DNA of 64,000 bases from contig JBOEGF010000032.1 of NCBI GenBank assembly GCA_050633305.1, forward strand, positions 224,001-288,000, given 5' to 3'. Below the pieces are notes generated by a model. It saw nothing but the letters and a program-made list of their open reading frames with translations. It did not search any database and was not told the origin of the DNA. The stretch comes from Nannocystales bacterium (lineage in GTDB: Bacteria > Myxococcota_A > Polyangia > Nannocystales > Nannocystaceae). Of the stretch, positions 48,170 to 50,568 are shown piece by piece (position 1 is the stretch's first letter; each line of letters opens with the position of its first letter). A program made the position numbers and the translations under genes.

Positions 48170-49234
48170 ATGCGCACCACGTATGCCGCCGTCGTTGCCC
48201 TGTGCGTGGCTTGCGGGACGCCCGAGGAGACCGGCGAAGAGAGCAGCCCTCCGTCATCGACCAGCGAGTCCCCGTCGGGGGCCGTGAGTACGGAAAGCTC
48301 GGCGCAGAGCACCACCGACGCCACGGAGACGACCGCGGACCCATCCAGCTCCGGAAACGCGGGGACCGCCGAAGCCACCACCGACGCCACGAACTCCACG
48401 GGCCCCACCGACTGCGCGCCGCCTCCCGATGCCAGCCCCGCGTGGCTGCGGGGTTACCTCGATGAGGTCGTCGCTCGGATGACGGGGGCGATGGAACTCT
48501 CGCCAGGTGTGACGCTTGCCGAACGCTCTACACCCGCGAACCGGGCCGCCACCGCGGACTGGCTGGACGCGGAGTTTGGTGCGCTGGGTCTCGAGGTCGA
48601 ACGCCACGCCTACTCCGCACAGGGGACGAACATCGTGGGGCGATTGCCTGCGACCGAGCCCGGAGGACGGACCCTGGTCGTGGGTGCGCACTTCGACAGC
48701 GTCCCCGGATCGCCGGGCGCGAACGACAACGCCACCGGCGTCGCGTTCGTCCTCGCGCTGGCCCGCTACTCGAGTTCAATCGAGTGCCGCAGCCATGACG
48801 TGCTGTTCGTGGGTTTCGACCAAGAGGAGGTCGGGTTGGTGGGCAGCGAGGCGTACGCCGCGTTTCTCGTGGACCAGGGCGAGGACATCCTGGCGGTCCA
48901 CACGATCGACCAGATGGGCTGGGACCAAGACGGGGACCGAGCGATCGAGTTGGAACGCGCCGACGAAGGCCTGTACGAGGTCTACGAAGCCGCCAACGCC
49001 TCGCTCGGCACCCCGATCACCCTGCACTCGACCGGGACCGGCTTCACCGACCACGTGTCCTTTCGTCCGTACGGGTTCGCAGCCGTGGGTCTGACCGAAG
49101 AGTTCGTCAACGGTGACACCACGCCGCACTACCACCTCTCCACCGACAGCTACGAGACGGTGAACTTCGACCTGCTCGCCTCGACCTGCGTGTTGGGCAA
49201 CACCGCGTTCGCGATGCTCATCGACGCCGGCTGA
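48170..49234 (+). CDS. M28 family metallopeptidase lipoprotein
   Basis: Lipobox CVAC; VGAHFDS, GANDNATG, EEVGLVGS, TDH, YH..TD. Confidence 0.88.
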   Translation: MRTTYAAVVALCVACGTPEETGEESSPPSSTSESPSGAVSTESSAQSTTDATETTADPSSSGNAGTAEATTDATNSTGPTDCAPPPDASPAWLRGYLDEVVARMTGAMELSPGVTLAERSTPANRAATADWLDAEFGALGLEVERHAYSAQGTNIVGRLPATEPGGRTLVVGAHFDSVPGSPGANDNATGVAFVLALARYSSSIECRSHDVLFVGFDQEEVGLVGSEAYAAFLVDQGEDILAVHTIDQMGWDQDGDRAIELERADEGLYEVYEAANASLGTPITLHSTGTGFTDHVSFRPYGFAAVGLTEEFVNGDTTPHYHLSTDSYETVNFDLLASTCVLGNTAFAMLIDAG

Positions 49235-49574
49235 TCCGTCGACGCAAGCGCCGGCCGATGCTCCGCAACGAGGGGCGAGTCGGCGCGTCCGACTCTCTGG
49301 CTGGGAGCTCGCCGCGCGGTGGCCGAAGAAGCAACGGGAGCGACACCAGGCTCCGTGTGAGCTTGCCCAGCAAGGCGGCGGGGGACTCCGCTTCGACAGA
49401 GATCGCCACGTCCTGCCCGGCCACCGCGTCCTCCAGCGCTCCTCGCGCGACCGTTCTCGTGCCGTCGGAGCGGATCTCCACCACCAATCGCGCCACAACC
49501 GGGGGAAGTGCTTCCGCCCCTTTCGGCGCCACAGGCTCACCAAGGGCCGGCTTGGGGGCGTCGGAGTCGTCCAC
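49218..49574 (-). CDS. Hypothetical protein
   Basis: Compact ORF (VVARLVVEIRSDGTRTVARGALED) divergent from the DsbA gene; 17-bp convergent overlap with the peptidase. Confidence 0.5.
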   Translation of the reverse strand: MDDSDAPKPALGEPVAPKGAEALPPVVARLVVEIRSDGTRTVARGALEDAVAGQDVAISVEAESPAALLGKLTRSLVSLPLLLRPPRGELPARESDAPTRPSLRSIGRRLRRRISRRR

Positions 49575-49725
49575 AGCGTCAGGGTGCCCTCGTAGGGACC
49601 TTTCGTCACGCCCGTTCCCCGTCGATGGAAAATATCGATATAGTCCGCCGACTCAAACCGTTGAGTCGATGCCGGGCATCCGCTTGGCTTTCCGGCACAA
49701 CCACTAGGTAGGAGAAACCATTCAC

Positions 49726-50568
49726 ATGACACGGAAACGACCGAGCCTCCCAGGGCTTGGCGCAGCCGCCATGGCAGCCCTCATGATTGTGGGTTGTCAG
49801 GGGTCCGGGTCCTTCGCGCAGATGCAAGAGCAGCTCGCAGCGATCGACCAGAAGCAGGACAACATCTTGGCCAAGCTCGGTGAGCTTGAAGGCAAGATTG
49901 GCAAAGCAGGCCCCGCCGCGCCCCCCTCGAAAGCAAAAGGCCCTCGTCCGGGCCGTCCCGACCCGAAAGCCACCTACAAAGTGGCGGTTGCCCCCGACGA
50001 CGCGGCCAAAGGCCCCGCCGACGCCAAGGTGACCATCGTCGAGTGGTCGGACTTTCAATGACCCTTCTGTAAGAGAGTCGGTCCGACTCTCGCCAAAATC
50101 TCAGAGACGTACAAAGACGACGTACGCATCATCTTCAAACAGAACCCTCTGCCGATGCACAACCGTGCGATGCCGGCAGCGATGGCCTCCGAGGCCGCCG
50201 GCAAGCAGGGCAAGTTCTGGGAGATGCATGACAAGCTCTTCCAAGATCCCCGCGCACTCACCGATGAGAACATCGAGAAGTACGCGACGGAAATTGGCCT
50301 CGACATGGCCAAGTTCAAGGAAGATCTCAAAGACAAGAAGCTCGAAGCCAAGATCAAGAAGCAGCAGTCGCAGGGTTCCACCCTCGGCGCTCGGGGTACC
50401 CCGGCATTCTTCGTGAACGGTCGCTTCCTGTCCGGCGCTCAGCCCTTCGAGGCCTTCAAGGCCATCATCGACGAAGAGATGAAGAAGGCCGACGCGTTGC
50501 TCGCCAAGGGCACGCCGAAGGACAAGCTGTACGACGCGATCATCGCCAAGGGCAAAACCAAGCCCTAG
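49726..50568 (+). CDS. DsbA/DsbG-family thioredoxin-fold lipoprotein, predicted selenoprotein (in-frame UGA = Sec at 50059-50061, active site U-P-F-C), 280 aa
   Basis: Track ORFs 49726-50061 and 50155-50568 share one frame, broken only by TGA: KGPADAKVTIVEWSDFQ-U-PFCKRV...PLPMH...QGKFWEMHDKLF...GTPAFFVNG. RBS GGAGA and lipobox IVGC. Confidence 0.9.
50073..50091 (+). promoter_or_regulatory. Putative bacterial SECIS element
   Basis: Perfect 8-bp stem GAGAGTCG/CGACTCTC with a GTC loop, starting 11 nt after the UGA. Confidence 0.8.

Follow-up and report, generated by a model that had tools for sequence, protein, structure and literature searches.

Known relatives of the locus

Selenoproteins of a DsbA-like and a DsbG-like kind with UxxC have been catalogued by several surveys. 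The DsbA-like ones were first set out in the Sargasso Sea catalogue of 2005, where the set is assigned to COG2761 (PMC1088965), and a bacterial survey of 2006 lists a DsbA-like selenoprotein for Anaeromyxobacter dehalogenans (PMC1794560). A 2026 review treats the DsbA-like and DsbG-like selenoproteins with a UxxC motif as predicted families, and its table gives DsbA-like form 1 as never assayed (PMC13188914). Among the enzymes with cysteine (Cys) in place of selenocysteine (Sec), the ScsC proteins are described as isomerases that form trimers via their N-terminal helices, are kept reduced by ScsB and contain a Thr-cis-Pro motif (PMC8900818).

The gene described here lies in a 64,000-nucleotide stretch of DNA from a Nannocystales bacterium (the window) and is a further member of this catalogued kind of bacterial selenoprotein, not a new kind. 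It can be likened by domain and motif to DsbA-like form 1 in Table 1 of the 2026 review, sharing a PF01323 match above cut-off, the UxxC motif, a single Sec and an in-frame bacterial SECIS element, whereas PF13462 (Thioredoxin_4) scores slightly higher here and the lipoprotein anchor, coiled-coil stalk and Cys twin of the present gene do not figure in the descriptions of that form that were consulted (PMC13188914). The best NCBIfam match is NF041057 (DsbG-like, Rcas_1661 (seleno)lipoprotein), likewise a UxxC lipoprotein, with residues 15-250 aligned to model positions 3-246; at 102.2 bits against a cut-off of 190 the protein is not a member of this equivalog, and its Cys twin scores the same (102 bits).

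The closest solved sequence is DsbA/TsdA of C. diphtheriae (4PWO, 4PWP, 7UNN; E 6e-25, 34-37% identity), which shares the S-D-F-x-C-P-F-C and G-T-P motifs but is an actinobacterial Cys enzyme whose match is confined to residues 89-257, the N-terminal helix not being shared. The trimeric disulfide isomerases ScsC of Proteus mirabilis and Caulobacter crescentus (4XVW, 5IDR, 7RGV) and Wolbachia alpha-DsbA2 (6EEZ) resemble the present protein in their DsbA-type domain, their CxxC motif with Thr-cis-Pro and their long N-terminal helix, but they are only 20-27% identical to it and carry Cys instead of Sec, and in comparison with ScsC a proline-rich linker of about 25 residues here parts the helix from the catalytic domain. 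No scs operon or ScsB gene was found beside the Sec gene at the locus. A literature search found no study of the coiled-coil lipoprotein subfamily, although supplements or subscription journals may list one.

A single reading frame with an internal UGA codon

The region 49726-50568 on the forward strand is one frame of 280 residues whose sole internal TGA is codon 112, reading DFQ-U-PFC, and ORF calling with table 11 splits it into pieces of 111 residues (49726-50061) and 137 residues (50155-50568). The original prediction, that these two ORFs are one frame broken only by a TGA at the position of the first active-site Cys, is borne out by the translation, and the split that it anticipated in annotation is found in public protein sets, where the 111- and 137-residue halves are stored as separate nameless proteins. 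Correction of this annotation would recover an envelope redox enzyme that is now stored as two hypothetical fragments. The features of the gene are as follows.

49710-49714, forward strand: AGGAG, Shine-Dalgarno-like, 11 nt 5′ of the ATG and likewise present ahead of the 6 orthologs shown from the genus
49726-50568, forward strand: whole gene for a predicted 280-residue Sec-containing DsbA-fold lipoprotein, terminator TAG (translation, Pfam)
49726-49797, forward strand: lipoprotein signal peptide with basic n-region, hydrophobic core and lipobox I-V-G-C24 (sequence; lipidation predicted)
49807-49902, forward strand: amphipathic heptad helix, residues 28-59, a likely oligomerisation stalk (AlphaFold2 model, heptad register)
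49999-50475, forward strand: thioredoxin-fold domain with inserted helical domain of the DsbA/ScsC type, residues 92-250 (Pfam, model, Foldseek)
50059-50061, forward strand: in-frame UGA for the predicted Sec112, which takes the attacking position in U-P-F-C (alignment, conservation)
50068-50070, forward strand: resolving Cys115, invariant in 25/25 alignment rows
50073-50091, forward strand: predicted SECIS hairpin with an 8-bp stem and a GUC loop (N1-G-U-N-N2), encoding R-V-G-P-T-L (folding, conservation)
50398-50403, forward strand: Thr225-Pro226, the cis-Pro loop of the thioredoxin fold, invariant in 25/25 rows

In the alignment, the Sec112 column is where 87 homologous Cys domains have the first Cys of their CxxC. 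With a UGA at this active site, a conserved hairpin of the SECIS type and a full set of Sec machinery in the genome, the in-frame UGA of the DsbA fold almost certainly codes for selenocysteine, giving one selenoprotein of 280 residues with a predicted mass of 30.3 kDa for the precursor and 28.0 kDa from Cys24 before lipidation. Judging from conservation and bacterial Sec biology, SelB-GTP with Sec-tRNA would bind the GUC-looped hairpin and decode UGA112, a reading with an estimated probability of about 0.96.

A search at the gene found neither a sigma-70-type promoter nor a convincing terminator. Contigs from three RNA libraries (2 studies) cover essentially this gene alone within 18 kb, which is at most a weak hint at its expression since the runs were chosen by containing the gene and one DNA run also covers the neighbours poorly.

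The SECIS hairpin and its association with TGA

The predicted 8-bp stem, starting 11 nt after the UGA and closed by a loop that begins with GU, is present exactly as described: the arms at 50073-50080 and 50084-50091 pair perfectly around a GTC loop that starts 19 nt past the TGA, and the stem alone has a folding energy of -10.6 kcal/mol. The published bacterial SECIS (bSECIS) consensus comprises a loop of 3-9 nt, a stem of 4-16 bp, a G in the first two loop positions, a UGA-to-loop distance of 16-37 nt and an MFE of -7.5 kcal/mol or lower (PMC13188914). The hairpin falls within every one of these bounds with its loop of 3 nt and stem of 8 bp, as scored with an own implementation of the published constraints. 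The general bSECIS model by itself is permissive, being passed by 39 of 87 Cys domains (15 of 87 with a G[GU] loop), and was rejected as a discriminator on that ground. In this genome, 37 of 30,000 random TGA codons are followed by a perfect stem of 8 bp or longer whose loop starts with G[GT] 16-37 nt downstream, as are 9 of the 1,449 TGAs that end coding-like frames, nine sites that may themselves include other Sec sites. The folding z-score is -4.23 for a 32-nt piece and an unremarkable -1.1 to -1.5 over three longer pieces of 52-102 nt.

The distribution of the hairpin over 108 distinct homologous domains (21 with TGA, 87 with Cys) agrees with the conservation that had been expected of it, with at least seven of the eight pairs retained in 19 of the 21 TGA domains, the window's own included, and in none of the 87 Cys domains. 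Covariation was assessed over 52 TGA sites, 21 from relatives and 31 picked by an [RK]VG motif from the collection scan described below; 93.5% of cells pair, as against 61% at most in slid controls, and three of the eight pairs show two-sided changes. As the relatives are not independent, these figures are not to be read as probabilities. The original prediction had also drawn on an excess of A/T-ending codons around the TGA, an argument that stands only in part: such codons make up 6 of the 14 near the TGA as against 55 of the 265 others in the gene (p=0.06), or p=0.025 when the comparison is restricted to the part downstream. TGT, AAA and TCA lie outside the 8-bp stem, while the rare codons AGA and ACT, which genome-wide account for 2% of Arg and 5% of Thr codons respectively, are both within the stem and are informative. 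In view of the p=0.06 over the whole gene, codon bias is not used here as support.

Conservation and other readings of the UGA

The TGA occupies the Sec112 column in all six same-genus genomes and in nine more of 39 relatives, namely six non-genus family members (G010, G012, G014, G015, G018 and G020) and three genomes of the same class. The exact TGA and SECIS pattern was recovered from 24 of the 72 genomes of the family and from 12 of 301 across the phylum, with 0 matches for a reversed-pattern control. In the 168 codons that follow the TGA, synonymous codon differences number 22-33 in five orthologs and non-synonymous ones 5-11, indicating that this part of the frame is under purifying selection. 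The decay of the downstream frame that would have spoken against the original prediction is thus not seen, and the relatives conserve the TGA, the hairpin and the frame alike.

These observations bear on two other readings of the locus. Were the TGA a true stop, the products would be a 111-residue coiled-coil lipoprotein and a separate 137-residue protein started at a downstream ATG, both of which are indeed held in public protein sets, the shorter one within a cluster of 14 members; some truncated product is moreover to be expected, as termination generally competes with Sec insertion at UGA. The 137-residue piece, however, has neither an active site nor a signal peptide. The stretch of 31 codons that parts the two ORFs is conserved and includes the invariant Cys115, the hairpin goes with TGA and not with Cys, and Cys homologues of full length align colinearly along the whole 280 residues. 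These points leave termination as the normal outcome very improbable. A pseudogene, or a sequencing error at a Cys codon, is less probable still. The gene could be dispensable given the intact Cys paralogues that the genome also carries, but this explanation is refuted by the presence of the TGA throughout the genus, by the purifying selection downstream and by the contigs of five independent public runs (4 studies), in which the TGA is unchanged; the gene contains no other stop or frameshift.

The collection scan covered species genomes with a SECIS-blind coding pattern, S-D-F-Q-TGA-P-[F/Y]-C, and returned at least 123 loci. Among the matches listed, the 80 titled loci include Chloroflexota, Desulfobacterota, Acidobacteriota, Myxococcota and Planctomycetota. 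Of 124 scan sites, 122 keep the frame open for 70 codons or more past the TGA, and the bSECIS model fits 101 of those 122. The spread over phyla, the open frames and the bSECIS fits together indicate that Sec-bearing DsbA-fold genes are common and use several SECIS types. Near copies of the present gene are found in metagenomes of algal, marine, protist, mat and ice origin. Across loci L088-L190, lineages differ in the SECIS hairpin behind the same UPxC motif and each has fixed its own peptide there (RVGPTL, xxPLLEQV, FATxAGRQ and VRETxP among the matches listed), an instance in which RNA structure can be seen to shape the helix behind an active site.

By domain search, the neighbours of the gene are a solute symporter, an M28 peptidase, an FGE-sulfatase-domain protein and a Ser/Thr kinase. 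The neighbourhood is conserved, with at least two neighbours each, at all 11 Sec-bearing loci tested in the genus and family, and these conserved neighbours do not point to a substrate. Directly 5′ of the Sec gene, at 49218-49574 on the reverse strand of the window, is an ORF of 118 codons with no Pfam or NCBIfam match, the first 70 residues of which are 57-79% conserved at every Sec-bearing genus or family locus compared.

Sec machinery and further selenoproteins of the genome

The search for Sec machinery that the original prediction proposed as a check found all components in the 11.0 Mb genome (65.9% GC), with selA at 397 bits, selB at 265 bits, selD at 367 bits and a tRNA-Sec with TCA anticodon at 67 bits, each above its curated cut-off. 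Among the TGA-bearing relatives, no selA match was found in G001, where selB and tRNA-Sec were found, or in G025, where selB was found, and G014, a genome that is 71% complete, gave no selA, selB or tRNA-Sec.

Family HMM searches of the source genome found an in-frame TGA in 7 of 34 AhpC/TSA matches, 1 of 6 GPx matches and 1 of 11 molybdopterin matches, and selD carries one of its own. Ten further TGA-containing redox genes, SelD included, have hairpins in the SECIS position, that of selD being the least clear, so that the genome encodes at least 11 selenoprotein genes together with the Sec-DsbA gene, in a count limited to sites confirmed by family HMMs. A genome-wide TGA scan with 682 candidates was discarded as a list of selenoproteins because it is mostly noise. 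Two heme-copper oxidase subunits I suggest that the source organism is likely an aerobe, and a likely aerobe with this number of selenoproteins contrasts with the statement of the 2026 review that aerobes rarely retain them (PMC13188914).

The further selenoprotein genes include four of the AhpC/TSA type with UxxC, a GPx (UxxT), a formate-dehydrogenase-like molybdoenzyme (UHxP) and SelD, at sites C20:61257, C43:106110, C10:198930, C5:271923, C24:25172, C23 near 30170 and C4:134092 of the genome (G000). Three more AhpC/TSA-type UxxC domains (G000 C5:196987 and C5:195152, both on the reverse strand, and C18:115685 on the forward strand) end long open frames in which about 500-570 codons precede the TGA; all of their SECIS loops are GUU, and two of the genes stand in tandem.

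Protein architecture and probable role

The exported, lipid-anchored protein with an N-terminal coiled coil that had been predicted is reflected in the lipobox IVG-C24 and the heptad helix 28-59. The lipoprotein assignment is based on the match to the lipobox consensus, [LVI][ASTVI][GAS]C, and on the conservation of its Cys, which is aligned in 21 of 25 rows. The helix spans residues 28-59 in the AlphaFold2 model at a local pLDDT of about 60-70, with F30, L37, Q44, L51 and I58 in heptad position a and M33, I40, I47 and L54 in position d. The domain that follows the linker matches PF13462 at 102.6 bits (cut-off 23.2) and PF01323 at 96.8 bits (cut-off 25.6). The model as a whole has a pLDDT of 85 and a pTM of 0.72, rising to pLDDT 93-98 in the blocks from residue 81, and Foldseek aligns it with 3GYK (E 3e-11, rmsd 1.9 Å) and 4PWP (rmsd 2.4 Å). 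A (C/U)xxC motif at the start of helix 1 and a cis-Pro loop, both features of the DsbA fold, are present.

Judging from the lipobox, the precursor is very probably exported and lipidated at Cys24. By the chemistry of the family, it can be expected with still greater confidence that the Sec112 selenolate attacks substrate disulfides and that Cys115 resolves the intermediate via a selenenylsulfide. The most likely job of the protein is that of an oligomeric, ScsC-like disulfide isomerase or reductase, an assignment that is somewhat more probable than its alternatives. The long N-terminal heptad helix and the Thr-cis-Pro motif point in this direction, as does the occurrence of ScsC and Wolbachia DsbA2 among the Foldseek matches. 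So does the equipment of the genome, in which no match to DsbB was found, while two VKOR-thioredoxin-fold fusions and one DsbD-type protein are encoded. Helix 28-59 would, on the same balance of odds against an oxidase, bundle several catalytic domains, and the reduced enzyme would rearrange or mend incorrect disulfides. With Sec in it, a CxxC pair has a lower redox potential, which favours reduction and shuffling. A DsbD-type protein perhaps keeps the enzyme reduced; one unlinked candidate is encoded (C4:224654, L208), with a membrane domain and a C-terminal thioredoxin domain only, and as an N-terminal alpha domain is not evident in its frame this partner is uncertain.

The same selenoprotein could instead serve as a dithiol oxidase of the DsbA/BdbD/TsdA type, in which case it would pass its Se-S bond to proteins just exported and be re-oxidised by VKOR, with the helix as a mere spacer from the membrane; this is a serious but distinctly less probable alternative. 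Its best solved-structure sequence matches are to C. diphtheriae DsbA/TsdA, an oxidase-type enzyme, TsdA, Wolbachia DsbA1 and BdbD rank among the top Foldseek matches, and Thr-cis-Pro is also present in Gram-positive oxidases. The genome of this likely aerobe contains two VKOR domains, and its 22 DsbA-like matches (E up to 1e-20) suggest a heavy disulfide load. Both VKOR domains, however, are already joined to thioredoxin-fold domains of their own (G000 C8:345988-347127, L206, and C76, L207), and these fusions could carry out oxidation unaided. In general, an Se-S bond oxidises less strongly than S-S. Conservation of the heptad helix extends through the single-domain lipoproteins, and this, with the co-variation of the helix between the tandem Sec and Cys copies of the sister genus g10, fits an interaction surface better than a spacer. 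A further point against the isomerase or reductase assignment, which is kept as the favoured one, is that motifs alone do not settle the redox role of such proteins (PMC8405906).

Cys twins of the Sec gene

The genome also carries, unlinked on C14, a Cys twin that is 64% identical to the Sec gene and has no hairpin, and such a twin was found in 6 of 7 genomes of the genus. Under selenium shortage, ribosomes would stop at the UGA and the unlinked twin could supply the activity. In g10, a tandem Cys twin follows the Sec gene at 7 of 8 loci examined; the tandem loci are L197-L203 and L066, and in genome G067 (L196) the order is Sec-Sec-Cys in a row. The Sec-gene neighbourhood was found at none of the 8 unlinked Cys-twin loci tested. 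Since Sec and Cys twins that are 64-75% identical share a genome, they offer a clean natural experiment on selenium in a DsbA fold in an oxidising compartment. In the same genome, more than 20 DsbA-like domains are present, of which the one in the Sec gene alone contains a TGA, and five domains of this type, all with Cys, lie within 3.5 kb at G000 C7:250035-253559.

In a 40-row tree, limited to lipoproteins of the CQG type and built without the Sec and SECIS-coded columns, the Cys copies fall into three clades, every one of them placed next to or within the Sec copies of its own genera, and the starred branches force 3 changes. A single Cys origin is narrowly rejected on these 40 rows (p-AU 0.039) and escapes rejection on a set of 25 that includes four long-branch Cys rows (p-AU 0.141), and on account of this difference repeated reversion from Sec to Cys is suggestive only. 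The direction of the change is likewise suggestive, resting on synteny, on near-identical SECIS elements in distant Sec genes and on self-chosen outgroups; a 75-row tree, computed as a quick tree only, gave no root state. Reversion from Sec to Cys in bacteria is described as rare outside FdhA and SelD (PMC13188914).

The stalks of the Sec and Cys copies in g10 are 93% identical within a genome and 82% across genomes (2 of 5,040 permutations), and synonymous identity is no higher within a genome (0.67 vs 0.66), so that the co-variation of the stalks is a possible sign of mixed Sec/Cys oligomers. No co-variation of the coil was seen in the Sec gene's own genus (0.67 vs 0.66; 72 of 720 permutations), and mixed oligomers are therefore not supported for the source organism. 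A joint reading of these data would have an ancestral Sec gene keep its locus through at least three duplications, in each of which one copy turned to Cys and lost the SECIS element, with mixed oligomers in g10 and with the module elsewhere chained into proteins with three or four Sec residues. This scenario is tentative and, taken as a whole, unlikely; if it were true, the make-up of the Sec/Cys oligomers would follow the selenium supply.

Tandem multi-Sec relatives

Both the twin system and the tandem relatives are leads, not proofs. In the same-class genome G025, a frame of 878 residues (L032:904-3537 on the reverse strand, on contig C117; also L063) contains four tandem DsbA-type domains, with a TGA at all four attacking Cys positions, each followed by a SECIS hairpin with 8 of 8 pairs. 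This four-Sec form exceeds the maximum of three Sec per protein in the catalogue of the 2026 review (PMC13188914). A second frame, of 693 residues (L040:742-2820 on the forward strand; G036, C169), joins three tandem Sec-DsbA domains with a SECIS element each. Tandems of three and four Sec residues offer a test of the bacterial ribosome on several in-frame SECIS elements per mRNA. Among the matches listed, there are also two-Sec forms (L070, L091 and L110) and mixed two-domain forms with one Cys and one Sec domain (L077, L092 and L117).
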